From Nitrospinales bacterium (GTDB lineage: Bacteria; Nitrospinota; Nitrospinia; Nitrospinales; VA-1), in contig OZ253496.1 of the NCBI GenBank assembly GCA_965262115.1, forward strand, positions 416,001 to 480,000: DNA of 64,000 nt, given 5' to 3'. The notes beneath the pieces are model-generated. The model ran no database searches and was not told the origin of the DNA. It saw only the letters and a program-made list of their open reading frames with translations. Position 1 is the stretch's first letter, and each line of letters opens with the position of its first letter. A program made the translations under genes and the position numbers. Below are positions 1-8,705 of this stretch, in pieces.

Positions 1-523
1 CATGCTCCCATCTTCCACTAATACTCGAAGTCCCCGTGAAGCGTCCCGCGGTAAACTGTCAGGGAGGACTCAGGAAATCCAAAGACTCATCGGCCGCTCA
101 CTGCGTACGGTCATCGACCTTGAGAAACTGGGTGAGCGCACCATCTGGCTCGACTGCGATGTCATTCAGGCGGATGGCGGCACCCGTTGTGCTTCCATTA
201 CAGGAGCCTTCATGGCAACCGTTCTGGCCTTGAAAAAATTGAAAAAGGAAAAGTTGATCGACGAACTTCCGATCAAAGATTATGTCGCCGCGATCAGTGT
301 CGGCATCGTCAATGAGAAAAAAATGCTCGACCTGGATTACTCGGAAGACTCCACCGCTGAGGTCGACCTCAATATCGTCAAAACCGGGTCCGGAGGATAT
401 GTCGAAATTCAGGGAACTGCTGAACAGGAACCCTTCGACGATAAACAATTGGAGGGCCTTCTCAAACTCGCCGATAAAGGCATCAAAGAACTCATTGCCC
501 TCCAGAAAAAAACCGTTGGCTAG
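1..523 (+). CDS. rph: Ribonuclease PH (5'-truncated by window edge)
   Basis: Motifs [49 protein letters not shown]. Confidence 0.97.
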
Positions 524-590
524 CCACCACTAGGCGTGGAGCCAATGAGCCATAGCGTTAATGATCTGGCAAAGAATTGTCTCGGCTTAA
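520..590 (+). repeat. ~70-bp dispersed repeat, copy 1, beginning at the CTAG that contains the rph stop
   Basis: ctagccaccactaggcgtggagcca...ctggcaaagaattgtctcggcttaa; aligns by eye with 895-1002 (reverse strand), 4700-4768 and 5702-5762. Confidence 0.8.
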
Positions 591-615
591 CCGGCGATCC
601 ACTAGGGGAAGATCA

Positions 616-661
616 TCCTCTCCCCTCATGGGGAGAGGTAAGGCGTAGCCGCGGTGAGGGG
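616..661. repeat. REP-like GC-rich palindrome
   Basis: cctctcccc-tcat-ggggagagg hairpin followed by ggtgagggg. Confidence 0.6.
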
Positions 662-894
662 TTGCTATTATCCCCCATTCATCTTCCAGCCATCGCCCAC
701 AAGGCCGGGCTACTCCCTCTACTCGCCGTAGCGATAGTGTTCATTTCCTTGGCCCAGGCAATCCAACATCCTCACATAGTTAACTTCCCCTGGTTGAGTG
801 GACAGTTAGTTAAGAGGCATTAGCCTTCATGCCCGGAACGGGTACTTCGTAGAATGGGGAGCAAACCACCCCCTCTCAAAAACAGTGAGTTTTA

Positions 895-1002
895 TTAAGC
901 CGAGACAACTCTTGCCAGCCAATAAAGGCTATTTACCCCTGCGGGGCACGAAGTTTAAGGAAGAATATTACGGCTACTGGCCCCACGCCGAGTGGCGCCT
1001 AG
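895..1002 (-). repeat. ~70-bp dispersed repeat, copy 2 (inverted to copy 1), interrupted by a 39-bp insertion
   Basis: Reverse complement without 934-972 reads ctaggcgccactcggcgtggggccagtagc|aatagcctttattggctggcaagagttgtctcggcttaa; starts at the CTAG containing the nth stop. Confidence 0.8.
934..972 (+). mobile_element. 39-bp micro-element, copy A
   Basis: tacccctgcggggcacgaagtttaaggaagaatattacg; ungapped 39-nt match to 8379-8417 and 8476-8514(-). Confidence 0.7.
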
Positions 1003-1649
1003 CGGTGTTTGACCACACCAATTTTCGGGCAGGTGTCGGCAATGGTGCAGGACCCGCAAAACGGCGAGACCGGTTTGCAGATGTTCTGGCCAAAGGTCAC
1101 CAGCAAATCGTTATAGCCTTTCCAGTAGCGCCGGGGTAGTTTGTTTCTCAATACCATTTCGGTTTCGTCTGGTGATTTAGTTTTGACATAACCCCAGCGG
1201 TTGGAAATGCGGTGGACGTGGATGTCCACGCAGATTCCCGGTTTGTTGTGTCCCAGAATCAAAGTCAGGTTGGCGGTTTTGCGCCCCACCCCATTCAGCT
1301 TTAAAAGCTCTTCCAATTTATCGGGAACCTTCCCTTCGTAATTGTCCACCAGGTCTTTACAAAGTTCCTTTAACGATTGAGACTTGTTGCGAAAAAATGC
1401 CGCCGGATAAATGGCCTTTTCTATTTTTGCGTTGGAAAGCTTCATCAATTGGGCCGGATTTTTCGCTAGTTTAAATAACCGGGCCGAGGCGGGTTCGGTG
1501 ACCTCATCCCGGGTCCTCAGGCTGATGATGCAACTGACCAGCACCGTAAAAGGATCGTTCTTCTGGCTGATGACGGTTACACTTGGAGTTCGAAAATCAC
1601 GAACTGCCTTCTTCACCCTGACTAAAACCTCGCTGATGGGAAATTCCAT
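999..1649 (-). CDS. nth: Endonuclease III (HhH-GPD, 4Fe-4S)
   Basis: LNGVGRKTAN HhH, VDIHVHRISNR, C-terminal CKPVSPFCGSCTIADTC; start taken at MEFPIS. Confidence 0.93.
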   Translation of the reverse strand: MEFPISEVLVRVKKAVRDFRTPSVTVISQKNDPFTVLVSCIISLRTRDEVTEPASARLFKLAKNPAQLMKLSNAKIEKAIYPAAFFRNKSQSLKELCKDLVDNYEGKVPDKLEELLKLNGVGRKTANLTLILGHNKPGICVDIHVHRISNRWGYVKTKSPDETEMVLRNKLPRRYWKGYNDLLVTFGQNICKPVSPFCGSCTIADTCPKIGVVKHR

Positions 1650-1795
1650 GAGTATCCTCGCAGGCCCACTGTTTTTGCCCTGAAAAGCAATTCTTATTAG
1701 TAAAAAAGCGTTGATTTTGCTAGTATAAGAGCTTTTAAAAAACCCATCCCCCCACAAGCGGTTAGGGTGAACCTTTAAACCCGGATTTTAAGAAA

Positions 1796-2284
1796 ATGCA
1801 GCATACCATTTCTGTGTTATTGAACAACCGTTTCGGTGTTTTGTCTCGCGTGTCAGGTCTTTTCAGTAGCCGTGGTTTCAATATAGAAAGCCTGAATGTC
1901 GCAGAAACTTCCGATCCAACAGTTTCCCGCATGACCATAGTTACCATCGGTGATAATGCCAAGATTGAGCAGGTCACCAAACAACTTAACAAACTCGTTG
2001 ATGTAATAAAGGTCATTGACCTGACCGAGGAAAGTTTTGTTGATCGGGAATTATTGCTGATCAAGATGAACGCGGAAGTCCGGGTCAGGGAAGAGATCCT
2101 CATAATCGTGGATCTGTTTCGGGCCAAAGTTGTCGATGTGAGCCCCAGCACCTACACCATTGAGATCACCGGCGACGAAGGAAAACTAACTGGCTTTCTG
2201 GATATGTTGAGTCCTTTGGGAATCAAAGAAATCGTCCGGTCTGGAAGAATTGCTATCGGTCGGGGAAACAAATCGATCAATTAA
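1796..2284 (+). CDS. ilvN: Acetolactate synthase small (regulatory) subunit
   Basis: GVLSRVSGLFSSRGFNIESL ACT domain, KQLNKLVDVIKV. Confidence 0.96.
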   Translation: MQHTISVLLNNRFGVLSRVSGLFSSRGFNIESLNVAETSDPTVSRMTIVTIGDNAKIEQVTKQLNKLVDVIKVIDLTEESFVDRELLLIKMNAEVRVREEILIIVDLFRAKVVDVSPSTYTIEITGDEGKLTGFLDMLSPLGIKEIVRSGRIAIGRGNKSIN

Positions 2285-2311
2285 TTTTGCACTAAGATAA
2301 GGAGAACCGTT

Positions 2312-3313
2312 TTGTCTAAGATTTTTTATAACAAAGATGCGGACATCAAAATCTTAAAGAAGAAAACCATTGCCATCATTGGTTACGGCAGCCAGGGGCA
2401 CGCCCATGCCAGAAACCTCCACGATAGTGGAATGAAAGTGATCGTTGGCCTGAGAAAAGGTAGCGCTTTCTGGAAGAGAGCCCAAAAGGATGGCCTGAAT
2501 GTCATGACCGTCGCCGAGGCCACTAAAAAAGCCGATATCATGATGATCCTGATTCCCGATGACAAACAAAAAGCCATGTATGAAAAAGATATTGAGCCTA
2601 ACTTAACAAAAGGTATGTCTCTGGCGTGGGGACATGGATTCAATATCCACTTTGGACAAATTGTTCCGCCGAAAGATGTCGATGTATTCATGATCGCCCC
2701 AAAAGGTCCTGGTCATCTGGTCAGGAGAACCTTTGAGCAGGGCGCAGGCGTTCCCTGCCTGATGGCGGTTCACCAGAACGTTACCAAAAATGCGAGAAAG
2801 ATAGCCCTCGCCTATGCCAAGGGCATCGGCGGGACCCGTGCAGGTGTTCTGGAAACTGATTTCAGGGAAGAAACCGAAACCGACCTGTTTGGAGAACAGG
2901 CCGTATTGTGCGGAGGTGTTTCCGAATTGATCCGCGCCGGTTACGACACTCTGGTCGATGCCGGATACAATCCGGATCTTGCTTATTTTGAATGCCTCCA
3001 TGAACTAAAACTGATTGTCGACCTTATCTACGAAGGTGGTATCGGCAATATGCGTTATTCCATCAGCACCACCGCCGCCTATGGCGACGTGACCCGCGGA
3101 CCACGAATCATCACTCAGGAAACCCGTGCGGAAATGAAGCGGATTCTGGGCGAGATTCAGAGCGGAGCCTTCGCCAAAGAGTTTATTCTGGAAAACCTGG
3201 CCAACCGCCCACTGTTTAATGCACGACTGGCACAGGATAAAAAACATCGTATCGAGCAGGTCGGAGAAAAGCTCAGGAAAATGATGCCTTTCGTTGGCAA
3301 GAAGGTGCAGTAG
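2312..3313 (+). CDS. ilvC: Ketol-acid reductoisomerase
   Basis: [41 protein letters not shown] start after AAGGAG. Confidence 0.98.
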
Positions 3314-3319
3314 AAACCC

Positions 3320-3952
3320 ATGCACATTCCTATTGCTAAAGAGGGGTACATGTTCATCCTTCCCCTCGCTGTTTTAACGGGTGTTTTCTGGGCTTTGTCC
3401 TGGTTGTGGGCCGCCGGACTTTTTGGTGGACTCTTCCTCTTCGTCACCTGGTTTTTTCGTGACCCTGAAAGAACTATTCCCGAAGACCATAATGCCATCG
3501 TTTCACCGGGGGATGGCAGGATCGTCGAAATTGTGCCAGAAAAGGACCCGCTACTTGAGAAAGACGGCTATACACGAATCAGTGTTTTCCTGAATGTGTT
3601 TAACGTTCATGTCAATCGGGTACCCATCGCCGGGAAAATTCAAGCCTATCGCTATAACAAAGGAAAGTTTTTCAACGCCGCCAGCCACAAGGCTTCTATG
3701 GATAACGAACAAAGCGCTATCCTATTGAATAATGGTCATGTTACAATTTTAGTGAAGCAAATCGCCGGATTGATCGCCCGTAGAATTGTATGCTGGGCAA
3801 AAGAGGGCGATGAGTATCAACGCGGACAACGCTACGGCTTAATCCGTTTCGGCTCACGCATGGATGTTTTTGTGCCCGAAGGCACTGACATTAAAGTCAC
3901 AGTTGGCGATATTGTCAGCGGTGGAAGCTCCGTCATTGGATATTTAAAGTAG
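3320..3952 (+). CDS. psd: Phosphatidylserine decarboxylase (short type)
   Basis: FFRDPER, FNVHVNRVP, IRFGSRMD (GS cleavage site); next to pssA. Confidence 0.93.
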   Translation: MHIPIAKEGYMFILPLAVLTGVFWALSWLWAAGLFGGLFLFVTWFFRDPERTIPEDHNAIVSPGDGRIVEIVPEKDPLLEKDGYTRISVFLNVFNVHVNRVPIAGKIQAYRYNKGKFFNAASHKASMDNEQSAILLNNGHVTILVKQIAGLIARRIVCWAKEGDEYQRGQRYGLIRFGSRMDVFVPEGTDIKVTVGDIVSGGSSVIGYLK

Positions 3953-3959
3953 GAAAGGC

Positions 3960-4703
3960 ATGGAACCTAAAAAAGGCATTCATATCCTCCCCAGTTTGTT
4001 CACCACGGGAAATGTATTCTGTGGATTCTACGCCTTTGTCGCGGTACTGAATGAGCAGTTTTATTACGCCGCCTGGGCCATCGCGGTAGGAATGATTTTT
4101 GACGGACTCGATGGCCGCATCGCCCGGCTGACTAAAACCACCAGCGCTTTCGGCGAACAATACGATTCTTTGGCAGACATCATCACCTTTGGCATGGCCC
4201 CTGCCTTCCTTGCCTACTCATGGGTATTAAAACCATTCGGTCGGTTGGGTTGGATGGCAGCTTTCCTGTTTCTGCTTTGTGCCGCTCTAAGACTGGCCCG
4301 GTTCAATGTGACCAAACCAGAAATTCGCAGTCATCATTTCATCGGCTTGCCAAGTCCGGCGGCAGCGGTGGTGATCGCATCTATCGTTATTGCTTTTGAA
4401 GACCTGTTTGCCACACGCATGAATCCGTTCATCATGGTGATGGTGGTTTATACTCTGGCGTTTCTTATGGTCAGCAATATTAAATACCCCGCCTTCAAAC
4501 AGTTTGACTTTAAAAAACGGGTGGTGTTTCCCCGTTTCCTGTTCGTGATTTTATTCATTTATGTTCTGGCAACCATACCGCGGGTTGCATTGTTCATTCT
4601 TGGTATCAGCTACGCCGTTATGGGCCCGATTAGCTTATTGTTAACAAATAGAAAACTGGCGGCGGAGTCCAATGAAACTTCTCCTCCTGTTAACAACCAT
4701 TAG
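3960..4703 (+). CDS. pssA: CDP-diacylglycerol--serine O-phosphatidyltransferase
   Basis: DGLDGRIARL...FGEQYDSLAD motif, RLARFN, FIGLPSPA. Confidence 0.95.
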   Translation: MEPKKGIHILPSLFTTGNVFCGFYAFVAVLNEQFYYAAWAIAVGMIFDGLDGRIARLTKTTSAFGEQYDSLADIITFGMAPAFLAYSWVLKPFGRLGWMAAFLFLLCAALRLARFNVTKPEIRSHHFIGLPSPAAAVVIASIVIAFEDLFATRMNPFIMVMVVYTLAFLMVSNIKYPAFKQFDFKKRVVFPRFLFVILFIYVLATIPRVALFILGISYAVMGPISLLLTNRKLAAESNETSPPVNNH

Positions 4704-4768
4704 TCCACTGGCGTGGAGCCAGTTGCAATCACTTTATCTGGCTAGCAAAGAGTTTTGGCGGCCAATAA
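4700..4768 (+). repeat. ~70-bp dispersed repeat, copy 3, beginning at the pssA TAG stop
   Basis: ttagtccactggcgtggagccagttgcaatcactttatctggctagcaaagagtt... Confidence 0.7.
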
Positions 4769-4808
4769 GCTCTTGCTAGTTCCCTCTCTCGAGAGTGAGG
4801 ATTTGTAG

Positions 4809-5705
4809 ATGTCATGGATAGATAAAATCAAAGCCGGGATCGGCGGAAAAAAAACCGCCAAGAACGAAGATCTCTGGGCCGAGTGCAAAAAATGCAAGGG
4901 GCAGATCTATATTGCCGAACTGGAAACCAACTTGAAGGTCTGCCCCCACTGCGATTGCCATTTTCGTCTGGAAACCCGCCAACGTATCCATCAACTCATA
5001 GACCATGAATCGTTTAAAGAACACGATCAGAGTCTGACCGCCTCTGATCCGTTAAAATTCAAAGACACAAAAAAATATAAGGACCGTATCAAATCATCAG
5101 CTAAAAAAGGCCTTTCCAGCGATGCGGTGATCACCGGATCTGGAACTATTGAAGGTCTACCCATCGAACTCTGCGTCTTCGACTTCAGTTTCATGGGAGG
5201 AAGCATGGGTTCGGTAGTGGGAGAAAAAATCACCCGCGCCATCGAACGCGCCATTGAAAATAAATCAGCCCTGATTATTGCAAGCTCTTCCGGCGGCGCA
5301 AGAATGCAAGAGGGCATTTTTTCTCTTATGCAGATGGCTAAAACTTCTTCGGCTCTCAGCAAGCTGAGCAGCCAGAAAATTCCTTATATCTCCATCTTGA
5401 CAGACCCCACCATGGGCGGTGTCTCGGCCAGTTTTTCCATGTTGGGGGATATCATCCTCGCCGAACCGGGCGCACTGATCGGGTTTGCCGGACCGCGTGT
5501 CATCGAACAAACCATCAAACAGAAACTCCCTGAAGGATTCCAAACCGCCGAGTTTCTACTGGACCACGGTCTCATCGATAACGTCGTCCATCGTAAAGAC
5601 CTGAAATCCAGTCTCGCACTATTGCTCAAGATGCTGAAAAACAACCCCGCCGAAGAGTATGAAGAACCCACTCTCACTAAACCCCATGAATTCCTCGGCG
5701 CCTAG
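4809..5705 (+). CDS. accD: Acetyl-CoA carboxylase carboxyltransferase beta subunit
   Basis: N-terminal C4 zinc finger, FMGGSMGSVVGEKI, SGGARMQEG, GFAGPRVIEQTI. Confidence 0.97.
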   Translation: MSWIDKIKAGIGGKKTAKNEDLWAECKKCKGQIYIAELETNLKVCPHCDCHFRLETRQRIHQLIDHESFKEHDQSLTASDPLKFKDTKKYKDRIKSSAKKGLSSDAVITGSGTIEGLPIELCVFDFSFMGGSMGSVVGEKITRAIERAIENKSALIIASSSGGARMQEGIFSLMQMAKTSSALSKLSSQKIPYISILTDPTMGGVSASFSMLGDIILAEPGALIGFAGPRVIEQTIKQKLPEGFQTAEFLLDHGLIDNVVHRKDLKSSLALLLKMLKNNPAEEYEEPTLTKPHEFLGA

Positions 5706-5762
5706 CTACTAGCCGTAGGGAATGGCTTTTATTGGCTGACAAATAGTCATCTCGGCTTAATA
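5702..5762 (+). repeat. ~70-bp dispersed repeat, copy 4 (degenerate 5' half), beginning at the accD CTAG stop
   Basis: ggcttttattggctgacaaatagtcatctcggcttaata matches the 3' half of copies 1 and 2. Confidence 0.65.
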
Positions 5763-5767
5763 CAGCC

Positions 5768-5926
5768 TTACTGAAAAGCAGGGGTCGCATCGTAGTCAGC
5801 AAGTAATCTGGTGATTTCGTTTTGGAAGGTCACAAATGGCCGGGTACCGCTGATGAGCATTCCAGTCACGGAGTTATCGGTGGTGTAACCCAATACAAAA
5901 GCCGGGGTACCCCTTCCTGCGTTCGC
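5768..5926 (-). pseudogene. 3' remnant of a DsbA/thioredoxin-fold gene (no start, no CxxC)
   Basis: Manual translation ANAGRGTPAFVLGYTTDNSVTGMLISGTRPFVTFQNEITRLLADYDATPAFQ*; GTP cis-Pro loop and G..P...F...I..LL C-terminal pattern. Confidence 0.6.
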
Positions 5927-5928
5927 GG

Positions 5929-6888
5929 TTAGCAGCCGAGGCTTTTGATGGTATCTTCGATCGACATGGCGATACAGGTGAAGATGGGGGTATCCTCTTT
6001 CACATACCGGCTTCCTTCCGTTTCTCGCAACTCCTGAACCAGGTCTAGGAAATCGTCCGGAGAATCCGATTCGAAAGCCACCACGAACTCATAGTCATCG
6101 ATGCCAAAACTGTAGGTCGTGTTCAATTTGACGGTGGGATATTTGTTGCCAATATAAATATGCTCGTCCATGATCCCCTGACGGGTGAACTGAGTCAGCA
6201 GATACCACTCGCGCGTCTTGACGAAAGGATAGATGAAAAGATATTTCGCCTTGCCCGGAATGATATGCGTACGGTCTTCTTCATGCTCCGGATTGATGAA
6301 GTCCATATACATCGATCGCTTGGTCATGGAAAGATAGCTGTACTGAACATTCAAATATTTCCCCAATCCGGTCTGCAATATCCGGGTGGTCATTTTCTGG
6401 AACTCTTCCATGCTGTAGCAGATGCGCCATATCATGATATCGACATCACCACGAATTCCGACCATGGAATAACACAGTAGAATCATGTCTGAACTGTTGT
6501 CATATTCCTCAAGAATATCGATGAACTCCTTCACACCTTTATCGCGCTCTTCCTGAGGCAATCTGCGAAAAGCAGGGTCGAGCTTGTAAAACGTGAAACT
6601 AACGTATTGACGTTGGACGGGTGGTTCACCACCATTAGCTTTCTGTGCTTCTTCTCGCTTTTTGCGAGCGGCTTCCATGGCTTCGCCTTCGCGTTCCTGA
6701 CGGGCACGCGAAACCACTCCATCATCCACCACCGCGATGCTCTTGTCCTTGGCATACTGCTCGATACCGCGCACCACACTCTTGCGGACAAAAAACGGAA
6801 CATTCTTCATGCGGGTCTGGGCCTCATCGGTCCATTCCAGCTCCAACTCAGGCATGAATTCTTCTAATTCTTTATCGTCAATACTCAT
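5929..6888 (-). CDS. Chlorite dismutase/coproheme decarboxylase (ChdC/HemQ)-family protein with N-terminal PCP_red-like domain
   Basis: N-term WTDEAQTRMKNVPFFVRKSVVRGIEQYA; C-term IYPFVKTREWYLL, proximal MDEH, VKLNTTYSFGIDDYEF. Confidence 0.85.
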   Translation of the reverse strand: MSIDDKELEEFMPELELEWTDEAQTRMKNVPFFVRKSVVRGIEQYAKDKSIAVVDDGVVSRARQEREGEAMEAARKKREEAQKANGGEPPVQRQYVSFTFYKLDPAFRRLPQEERDKGVKEFIDILEEYDNSSDMILLCYSMVGIRGDVDIMIWRICYSMEEFQKMTTRILQTGLGKYLNVQYSYLSMTKRSMYMDFINPEHEEDRTHIIPGKAKYLFIYPFVKTREWYLLTQFTRQGIMDEHIYIGNKYPTVKLNTTYSFGIDDYEFVVAFESDSPDDFLDLVQELRETEGSRYVKEDTPIFTCIAMSIEDTIKSLGC

Positions 6889-7067
6889 AGTTTGTTCTCA
6901 ATATAAATGGGTTTCGGAAGCCGACATTATATCTAAAACTCCATGAAAATAAAAGCCCTATTCCCCACCCCTCAAGGTGGCACTATTTCAAGGTTGCACC
7001 TAGCGAAAGCGCTTTTTAAGGCCTAAGTTAGTAGTGAGTAAATATCAGGATAAATGAGGGATTTTAT

Positions 7068-8303
7068 ATGGACTCTACCACTACCTCTTCGAGTGCACAA
7101 AGCTTTATCGACCTCGAAAATGAGTTTGGGGCAAACAACTACAGGCCTCTTGATGTCGTATTAGCCCGGGGCCAGGGCGTCTGGGTCTGGGATGTGGAAG
7201 GTAAAAGATACATGGATATGCTGGCATCGTATTCCGCCCTCAACCAGGGGCACTGCCATCCCCGCATCCTGAATGCCCTCACCGAACAAGCCAAAAAGCT
7301 TACCCTGGTTTCCCGGGCTTTCCGTAACGATCAGTTGGGTCCCTTCTATATAGAAATCTGCGAGATGACCAACTCACACAGCGTTTTGCCGATGAACAGC
7401 GGTGCCGAGGCCGTCGAAACCGCCCTCAAAGCCGCCCGCAAGTGGGGCTATAGGATTAAAGAAATCCCCGACGACATGGCCGAGATCATCGTCTGCGCCA
7501 ATAATTTTCATGGCCGGACCACCACCATCGTCGGCTTCAGCTCCGAACATCAATACCGGGACGGGTTCGGCCCCTTCGCGCCCGGATTCATCACCATCCC
7601 CTTCGGGGATGCGGAAGCCCTGGAATGGGCCATCACCCCCAATACTGTAGCCTTTCTGGTGGAACCCATTCAGGGCGAAGGCGGTATCATCATCCCACCC
7701 CACGGTTATTTGAAAAAAGTACGCGAAATCTGTGACCGCAATAACGTTTTGCTCATCCTCGACGAGATCCAGACAGTGCTCGGCAGAACGGGCAAACTTT
7801 TCGCCGAAGAACACGAGGGCATCGAGTCCGACCTTACACTGGTAGGCAAAGCGCTCTCGGGTGGAGTCTACCACGTCTCCGCCGTGCTCTCTAATAAGGA
7901 GGCCCTGGCCGTTTTCGAGCCCGGGGACCACGGCAGCACCTTCGGCGGCAACCCCCTCGCGTGCGCCGTGGCACGCGAAGCATTGGCAGTCATAGAAGAT
8001 GAAAATCTCGTTGAAAGATCCCTATTTATGGGGCATTACCTTAAGGAATCTCTCAGGAATATTATCTCACCTTACGTCAAAGAAGTGCGCGGCATGGGAC
8101 TTCTGATCGGGGTCGAACTGAAGAAATCCGCTGGCGGTGCAAGGAAGTTCTGCGAAGCGCTGATGGAGAAAGGCATCCTCTGCAAAGAGACGCAGAAACA
8201 CGTGATCCGTTTCGCCCCACCACTCACCATCACCAAAGAAGAACTCGACTGGGCCCTCGAACGCATCGAGAGTGTATTGACCCCCATCAATAAACACCGA
8301 TAA
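7068..8303 (+). CDS. rocD: Ornithine--oxo-acid aminotransferase
   Basis: [57 protein letters not shown]. Confidence 0.95.
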
Positions 8304-8378
8304 CAAAGAATAAATCCCTCCCTTGGTAAGGAGACCTTTGCGTAAGTCAAAAAATCGAAGAATCGAGATGCTTCGACA

Positions 8379-8417
8379 TACCCCTCCGGGGCAAGAAAGC
8401 AATGGTTAAATATCACT
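8379..8417 (+). mobile_element. 39-bp micro-element, copy B
   Basis: tacccctccggggcaagaaagcaatggttaaatatcact. Confidence 0.65.
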
Positions 8418-8475
8418 AGCTCAGCATGACAATACTGGGCCATTTTGTCATTCTGAAGAGCGTACGCGATGAAGA

Positions 8476-8514
8476 CGTGATATTTTTCCCTAACCTTCGT
8501 GCCCCGGAGGGGTA
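8476..8514 (-). mobile_element. 39-bp micro-element, copy C
   Basis: Reverse complement tacccctccggggcacgaaggttagggaaaaatatcacg. Confidence 0.7.
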
Positions 8515-8705
8515 ATCTCGGGTTATGCAAAGCTCTCCTTGTCAGGGGAGGAGCTTTTTAAATTATCCCAATTCGTACTTGTGGTCAATCATCCCGGCCC
8601 ATGCTTGAGGTAAATCACCCCAGCCCTTGTGATATTCCTTCACCAGTTCTCATGCCCGGTACGGGTACTTTTAAAAGAAGGGTTTTTATCTGTGTCTATC
8701 TGTGT

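Follow-up and report, generated by a model that had tools for sequence, protein, structure and literature searches.

A nested 39–41-nt hairpin element of a Nitrospinales genome, possibly copied as a folded single DNA strand

Copies in the window and across the genus

The window analysed here is a 64,000-nucleotide stretch of the genome of a marine, Nitrospina-type Nitrospinales bacterium (G000:C1:416001-480000, G000 being the source genome), and it carries several copies of a small non-coding hairpin element that sits inside other repeats. We compared it with the genomes G003, G004, G007, G013, G018 and G019, of which G013 was covered over 2.4 of 2.86 Mb and G019 at about 60 loci; L-numbers denote single loci. 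The window copies lie among housekeeping genes, namely after rph, beside an endonuclease III-like gene and after an aminotransferase gene (names read from translations). Three ungapped 39-nt copies at 934-972, 8379-8417 and 8476-8514 had been reported in the first-pass annotation; their coordinates are right and they align without gaps at 89% column identity. A length of 39 nt holds for these three copies (A, B and C), while the family spans 39–41 nt. The features, with a caret marking the joint between element and host here and below, are:

519..591, minus strand: empty paralogue of the copy A host repeat
818..844, minus strand: truncated copy, head plus 9 nt of linker, without tail
894..1003, plus strand: copy A host repeat, genus-specific, about 70 bp, ending in GGCCCCACGCCNAGTGG, split by copy A
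934..972, plus strand: copy A, 39 nt; hairpin arms 934-948, loop 940-942; base 16 is C at 949; purine-rich linker; the tail's last base, G at 972, is complementary to base 16; the folded strand is the minus strand
973..980, plus strand: flank 3' of copy A, GCTACTGG; the orthologous empty site in G013 is GCTAATTGG, with an extra T ahead of the joint
4700..4768, minus strand: second empty paralogue of the copy A host repeat, more diverged
8365..8431, plus strand: copy B host hairpin repeat, gagatgcttcgaca before the joint and agctcagcatgaca after it; exact empty form 25 times in the genome
8379..8417, plus strand: copy B, 39 nt; base 16 is A, last base T
8447..8519, plus strand: copy C host, a hairpin repeat of TGTC/CGTC type, gtcattctgaag...gatgaaga^atctc; exact empty form exists
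8476..8514, minus strand: copy C, 39 nt; base 16 is C, last base G
8628..8667, minus strand: copy D, 40 nt, absent from the earlier annotation; hairpin variant CCCG/CGGG (compensatory change); within an aaag^agggctgggg repeat

The earlier view of a tiny non-autonomous element without target-site duplication, lying within palindromic repeats that have empty counterparts, is supported. No flanking duplication is found at copies A, B or C, as had been stated. Excising copy B gives cttcgaca^agctcagc, and this host has 25 empty and 13 filled occurrences in G000; excising copy C gives gagat^tcttc, with 38 empty and 12 filled occurrences. For copy A, removal had been said to restore the repeat of about 70 bp seen at 520-590 and 4700-4768. 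The similarity to these two stretches stands (scores of 97 and 77, against at most 48 for shuffled sequences), and the restoration is rough only. At the orthologous position, the empty G013 site reads TATTT GCTAATTGG and the filled one TATT, then the element, then GCTACTGG; the G019 orthologue is filled as well. Repeats of the copy A host type, ending in GGCYCCACGCCNAGTGG, stand near gene ends at 519-591, 894-1003, 4700-4768 and 5700-5762 of the window. This host type is confined to the genus (21 of 22 genus relatives and none of 18 others), and because it shares that restricted range with the element, it hints at genus-specific machinery for small hairpin modules. The gap between the same two genes at window positions 8304-8705 has wholly different content in the G013 and G019 orthologues, and for that reason we consider the whole repeat cluster with copies B, C and D to be recent.

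A head scan of G000 returned 324 matches, 263 of them with a tail, compared with two in an order-4 Markov genome of equal size. Removal of nested copies from the inside out gave 324 elements, comprising 168 of 39 nt, 64 of 40 nt, 83 of 41 nt and nine of other lengths, with 226 distinct sequences; 14 lie inside open reading frames (ORFs) as given by a rough gene caller. In G013 we counted 362 copies in the 2.4 Mb read. The strict element pattern is present in 20 of 22 genomes of the same genus and in none of 18 other relatives, and a reversed-pattern control gave no match. Almost every named genome with the pattern belongs to Nitrospinota; two of the 80 loci listed are labelled as other phyla, possibly through misbinning. 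These named-genome loci overlap partly with the genomes used later, so the later locus set is not independent. The element's abundance is not simply tied to that of the host repeats (104 hosts and 8 elements in G003, 8 hosts and 78 elements in G007), and its orientation relative to neighbouring genes is unbiased (72 versus 82). Among viral contigs, the full pattern was found at four loci on two contigs, and the head alone at 26, most of which fell by chance in coding DNA. In the viral collection, one contig of 50 kb has at least seven element heads (L041, L042, L044, L210-L212, L218, L219, L232). Elsewhere in G000, a tRNA-Glu-like 5' half ends just ahead of a micro-element at C1:2388860-2388895 (minus strand) and looks inverted at the anticodon arm; ARAGORN places two intact tRNA-Glu genes at other positions. 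A search of Rfam with the element gave no match, and literature searches found no publication on it, although supplements could list it; the main text of one preprint on non-coding sequence space does not mention Nitrospina.

Fold and insertion

On the plus strand the element is laid out as TACCC-N6-T-N-C-N10-GGGCA-N16-GAA, followed by a linker of 11–13 nt that is poor in C (347 of 5476 linker bases) and then by ATATCAC-N. Pairing was counted over 430 distinct sequences from two genomes. The pair formed by bases 6 and 10 is Watson–Crick in 391 of 430, its minus-strand types being C-G in 300, G-C in 69 and T-A in 21. Base 16 and the last base are complementary in 378 of 430 sequences, where three pair types occur; 2000 shuffles gave a mean of 191 and a maximum of 220. 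A G.T pair joins positions 2 and 14 of the minus strand in 396 of 430 (A.C if the plus strand is read), and the minus-strand loop is G-N-A, with a free middle base and fixed outer bases (plus-strand T in 167 of 168 and C in 157 of 168). GNA loops are unusually stable in DNA. The G.T pair and the G-N-A loop together point to the minus strand as the folded one; the structured strand is the reverse of the one drawn earlier for the CCCC-loop-GGGG hairpin. The hairpin foot on the folded strand is TTC-N, a GTAG or CGTC tag is not present, and the ends TACCCC and ATCACN are not inverted repeats.

The pair between base 16 and the last base, with the fixed C-G that adjoins it, continues the stem only when the end of the element is joined to its start. 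A circular fold keeps this pair in 301 of 430 minus strands versus 230 of 430 plus strands. It is mainly because this pair spans the end-to-start joint that we infer a single-stranded circle, or an equivalent nicked-helix substrate. One consistent exception to the pairing of base 16 with the last base was noted in reversed self-insertions at CCTT^CATG in several genomes (L072, L099, L106, L109, L110, L120, L151, L154), where the inserted copy has T at base 16 and its last base is G. We also considered the linker as a coded guide and rejected it, as pairing of the linker with its own target was not above permutation: individual linker–target positions reach z of 4–7 without building an evident helix, and along the best-sustained diagonal, L21-25 with +6 to +2, only about one third of sites pair.

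Empty sites are abundant. An empty counterpart exists in G000 for 97 of 201 unique sites, and in 78 of these 97 the commonest gap is exact. Rows of filled and empty orthologues among G000, G013 and the G019 loci numbered 31 clean ones, reduced to 25 unique ones by removing duplicates and rows below 85% identity. Joints of contigs from sequencing runs mix paralogous repeats. Junctions lie within 25 nt of a genome-wide repeat in 202 of 259 cases, compared with 323 of 1000 random intergenic points. Exact insertion is seen in many unrelated hosts, including an IS3 gene, and the target preference is weak: the sequence after the joint follows NSYNC, its best position being C in 113 of 180 unique sites, with no fixed target word and no fixed dinucleotide at the joints. 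Copies also insert into other copies at fixed places (after base 9, 20 or 29, and reversed at 17) as well as head to tail, with 22 head-to-tail joints. At G000:C1:814839-815060, four identical 39-nt copies and a differing fifth stand in tandem inside another copy.

Nesting extends to insertion sequences. All 17 IS3 copies found in G000 carry a 41-nt element at the end of orfA (for example C1:410906-412451), where an IS3 without it would read ...KAAVIFSKGSQ-stop, overlapping the ATG of orfB. Ten of the 17 hold an IS110 within the element, giving a nesting order of IS110 in micro-element in IS3. G000 has 26 IS110 ends of each kind; on the right, all 26 directly adjoin the GGGGC half of the element, and on the left, 25 of 26 come straight after CCCT. 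An example is L004:700-1900; the transposase match is split in about seven copies, likely by a frameshift, and two copies have a stop. The transposase matches IS621 (E 1.5e-30) and ISCro4 (E 2.4e-33), the element is split at the CT core, and the IS110 donor sequence, ACAGTTG-CT-TGTA, is unrelated to the element. The left end of IS110 folds into stems with an inner loop containing TTTACCCCT and TCCCGAAG, which match both sides of the element's CT core, and it probably represents a bridge-RNA-like structure whose predicted target loop spells the element's hairpin; in the passages concerned of PMC11208160, bridge-RNA target guides likewise match both sides of the core. IS110 is thus a parasite of the element, landing in its hairpin.

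Overwritten target flanks

At many sites the host bases next to the joint differ from those of the empty form. When a copy is inserted after base 9 of another copy, the host is expected to continue as NGGGCA; 18 of 23 such hosts, from different lineages, instead read NGCTCA, while empty heads in G000 read GGGGCA 147 times and GGCTCA never. Two relatives have the changed flank in five of seven self-insertions, and empty GCTCA heads number zero in five genomes; loose matches to such an empty head (3 in G013 and 22 in G000) are not elements. For the self-insertion at 1074704, the orthologue is uninserted and reads GGGG. The 25 ortholog pairs are identical over the six bases after the joint in 13 cases, differ at one base in four and at two or more in eight. 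Two of them, at 2081146 and L379, go from empty TGGGGC to filled TGCTGC; others go from GCCGTC to ACTACT (1335846), from GTTGTT to GCCACT (L354) and from TACCCT to CCCGCC. Copy A is one of the overwritten-flank cases. Words found only or mainly at filled sites agree with this pattern: TT^RCTACTGG has four filled and no empty occurrences in each of two genomes (in G000 in the form ATT^), TTG^RCCCCAGCG has 2/0 and 3/0 filled/empty occurrences in two genomes where RGTCCAGCG has 0/31 and 0/15, and GAGAT^TCTAC is filled 15 times and empty twice in G013, compared with 75 and 200 for TCTTC.

The changed tract is one-sided and at most about 6 nt long. Where similar elements occupy unrelated hosts, they have in common the five bases to either side of the joint and not the bases farther downstream (2.17 versus 1.63 and 1.79 versus 1.40 of 5; none of 500 permutations as high). 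In 10 of 10 chosen cases, close relatives agreed with the new flank more often than with the old one at the positions that had changed. Because related elements share the bases next to the joint and close relatives mostly carry the new flank, the flank of the donor is pointed to as the source.

Candidate mechanisms and the search for a mover

We propose, with about as much doubt as belief, that this non-coding mobile element of 39–41 bases, which leaves no target duplication, is copied as a folded single DNA strand by a cut-and-join enzyme acting from elsewhere in the genome. The pair of base 16 with the last base and the neighbouring C-G would extend the hairpin across the end-to-start joint and hold the ends side by side as in a nicked helix, a shape that would fit a small single-stranded circle or the substrate of a one-step strand transfer, with HUH-like chemistry as our best guess. 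The hairpin end would be joined exactly, and the other end would bring a few donor-flank bases that anneal imperfectly to the target and win in some events, overwriting up to six target bases. This would also account for the repeated return of element lineages to the same kinds of host repeat. The IS110 of G000 would then land in the element's hairpin. More tentatively, an as yet undescribed, genus-specific cut-and-join enzyme might write the folded strand, with the donor flank both choosing and overwriting the target; this would amount to a natural, heritable flap-based editor reaching at most six bases, and a bridge-RNA recombinase would in turn be programmed for what it produces.

A number of observations weigh against copying of a folded strand together with its donor flank. 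The predicted circle is only marginally stable (mean -0.25 kcal/mol), and unlike IS200/IS605 the copies are evenly split by replichore strand (155 versus 169, p = 0.47, with origin and terminus taken from an irregular GC skew). The pooled excess of changed flanks among orthologues is borderline (8/25 versus 5/45, p = 0.052, with reciprocal duplicates retained in the control), polarity is an assumption in any single ortholog pair, and in paralogous hosts mismatches are not generally raised at +1 to +5. The ten chosen cases were preselected as changed sites and their relatives are mostly in the same host family. Near-identical elements also occur in unlike flanks. One lineage has CT at +3 and +4 in two hosts that are otherwise unlike in their flank bases, and +1 keeps the host base in two cases; with CT recurring amid host-specific bases, the flanks are not fully accounted for by copying six donor bases. 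A change is also seen before the element, where cttcgaGA^ is filled 22 times and never empty in G000 (7/0 in G013), and some filled-only words can be founder alleles of a composite moving as a unit. Finally, a mover has not come to light. In G000, which is 93.9% complete, we found no match to Y1 transposases (RAYT/TnpA) and none in a Y2 search in which the control genomes were silent as well, and no gene recurs beside the element in 136 loci.

Other candidates gave the following picture. The Y1/RAYT mover suggested by the first-pass annotation is not supported in G000; Y1 genes occur in seven of 22 genus relatives, one of them without the element, and none of ten Y1 loci in relatives has an element head within about 1.5 kb. 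That the element is the scar of a larger one is likewise not supported, since tailless heads looked decayed or rearranged and no neighbouring gene recurs. Reverse transcriptase (RT) was rejected as the mover: it occurs in seven of 22 genus relatives, in none of the element-rich genomes G019, G007 and G018, and in G000 only as a broken match in the first 51 kb. That region (G000:C1:1-51000), with its long tandem repeats and the broken RT-like match, is unlike the remaining genome and is possibly foreign DNA in the assembly. Among ORFs with repeats on both sides, DUF559 alone stood out; it does not track element abundance and is missing from G007 and G004. GIY-YIG genes, small and REP-flanked in most genomes, do not track it either, G004 having none except UvrC. 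Small DUF559 and GIY-YIG genes are bordered by hairpin repeats of the CCCTCTCCC and CGTC types (window 610-670; G000:C1:1582279-1582653 and 2573218-2573433; L191), and these genes may be the movers of those host repeats.

Without any dedicated enzyme, rare first insertions could have been followed by spread among host repeats through gene conversion or template switching, the changed flanks being founder alleles, or later conversions kept because they stop pairing of the flank with the hairpin. We think this rather unlikely, even though the negative search for a mover agrees with it and the abundant host repeats offer 20–30 nt of homology. In its favour, there are chimeric copies and deletions between tails, the same downstream insert recurs in four IS110 copies that have different host tails, and the pairing of heads with their own flank is weaker than with permuted flanks (z = +4). 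Such conversion leaves unexplained the maintenance of the base 16 pair over three pair types, the fixed G-N-A loop and the exact insertion in many unrelated hosts. In addition, the changed tract of self-insertions ends within 2 nt of a host-specific base, which is too short for ordinary homologous recombination. Alternatively, the folded strand might be handled by a tyrosine recombinase, as in integrons or Tn916, with staggered cuts about 6 nt apart and the donor coupling sequence left as a heteroduplex; this would account for a replaced tract of at most about 6 nt on one side, and G000 has three full matches to the phage-integrase family plus a fragment. We consider it improbable: a double-stranded circle of 40 bp is implausible, unchanged sites lack a net gain of coupling sequence, and attC- or dif-like boxes were not seen by eye. 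For the Tn916 integrase itself, passages of PMC5812530 report that heteroduplexes are made and that homology between coupling sequences is not needed.

Slightly more doubtful still is copying from RNA by an RT primed at a nick in the target, with the new 3' flap overwriting the flank. One-sided overwriting and the high diversity of the element in G000 fit such a process, and the distribution of RT genes given above speaks against it, as do the even orientation relative to neighbouring genes, the empty Rfam search and the conserved three-base loop, which is of a kind known to be stable as DNA. The element could lastly be a scar, a donor joint or a non-autonomous derivative of IS110 moved by the IS110 recombinase, an IS110-type mover having been suggested earlier. 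The strict association of IS110 ends with the two hairpin halves is in its favour, and according to parts of bioRxiv 10.64898/2026.08.31.748434, IS621 is able to release single-stranded circles. This explanation is largely refuted and we give it very little credence, because the element matches the predicted target loop and not the donor loop, and because IS110 occurs in only six of 23 genus genomes; G013 and G019 have only short frames of 123 and 154 aa, and G007 has none despite its 78 strict element copies.

Folded-strand copying can also be set beside known systems. In Nostoc and other cyanobacteria, Elhai and colleagues in 2008 reportedly described small dispersed repeats (SDRs), very small mobile repeats of 21–27 nt that are free of duplication, nested in repeats and marked by compensatory structure changes. 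Our element is alike in being shorter than 50 nt, mobile, duplication-free and nested, with its structure kept by compensatory changes; it differs in its length of 39–41 nt and in belonging to another phylum. With repetitive extragenic palindromes (REPs), bacterial interspersed mosaic elements (BIMEs) and REPINs it shares a high-copy, lineage-specific extragenic hairpin targeted by IS110. For BIMEs, single-strand cleavage and circle models have been proposed in parts of the REP/RAYT literature (PMC3333891, PMC8266576, PMC3733652, PMC3116915). The element is unlike REP/RAYT systems in having no GTAG/CGTC foot tag, no fixed C^T joint and no RAYT gene in the genome, and in having a 20-nt tail with a fixed end; it inserts into REPs and is not itself one. 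The lack of target duplication recalls IS200/IS605, where, in the relevant part of PMC8266576, the 5' foot of the hairpin base-pairs with the element end in a guide-like manner; here, however, there is one hairpin and not two, the target motif is weak, TnpA is absent, no lagging-strand bias shows with replichores set by an irregular GC skew, and flank bases are changed. Miniature inverted-repeat transposable elements (MITEs) have the terminal inverted repeats and target duplications that this element lacks. A hairpin at the minus-strand 3' end, the lack of duplication and the head-to-tail joints are reminiscent of IS91 and Helitrons. The G000 IS110 resembles IS621, as portrayed in sections of PMC11208160, in its transposase, its CT core and its landing in a small hairpin repeat, yet its landing pad is a mobile micro-element and that of IS621 a REP. 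In Tn916, a few element-adjacent bases may differ from the target after integration (PMC5812530, in part), but Tn916 is large and has its own integrase, whereas the micro-element replaces target bases without net gain. The element works like the cyanobacterial SDRs and, in its guide-like pair, resembles IS200/IS605 and REP substrates, yet on the features tested it stands outside REP/RAYT, IS200/IS605, MITE and IS110.

The spread of REP-like and SDR-like repeats has long awaited an explanation. This family offers hundreds of sites together with empty orthologues and natural compensatory variants, and its replaced-flank footprint is one that any mechanism must reproduce. Given a candidate enzyme, the models are testable with 60-mer oligonucleotides, and a scarless mover whose only requirement is an 8-pair hairpin joint would make a useful insertion tool. 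The IS110, whose predicted bridge RNA targets the element, would represent a ready natural case of a recombinase retargeted to another mobile element.

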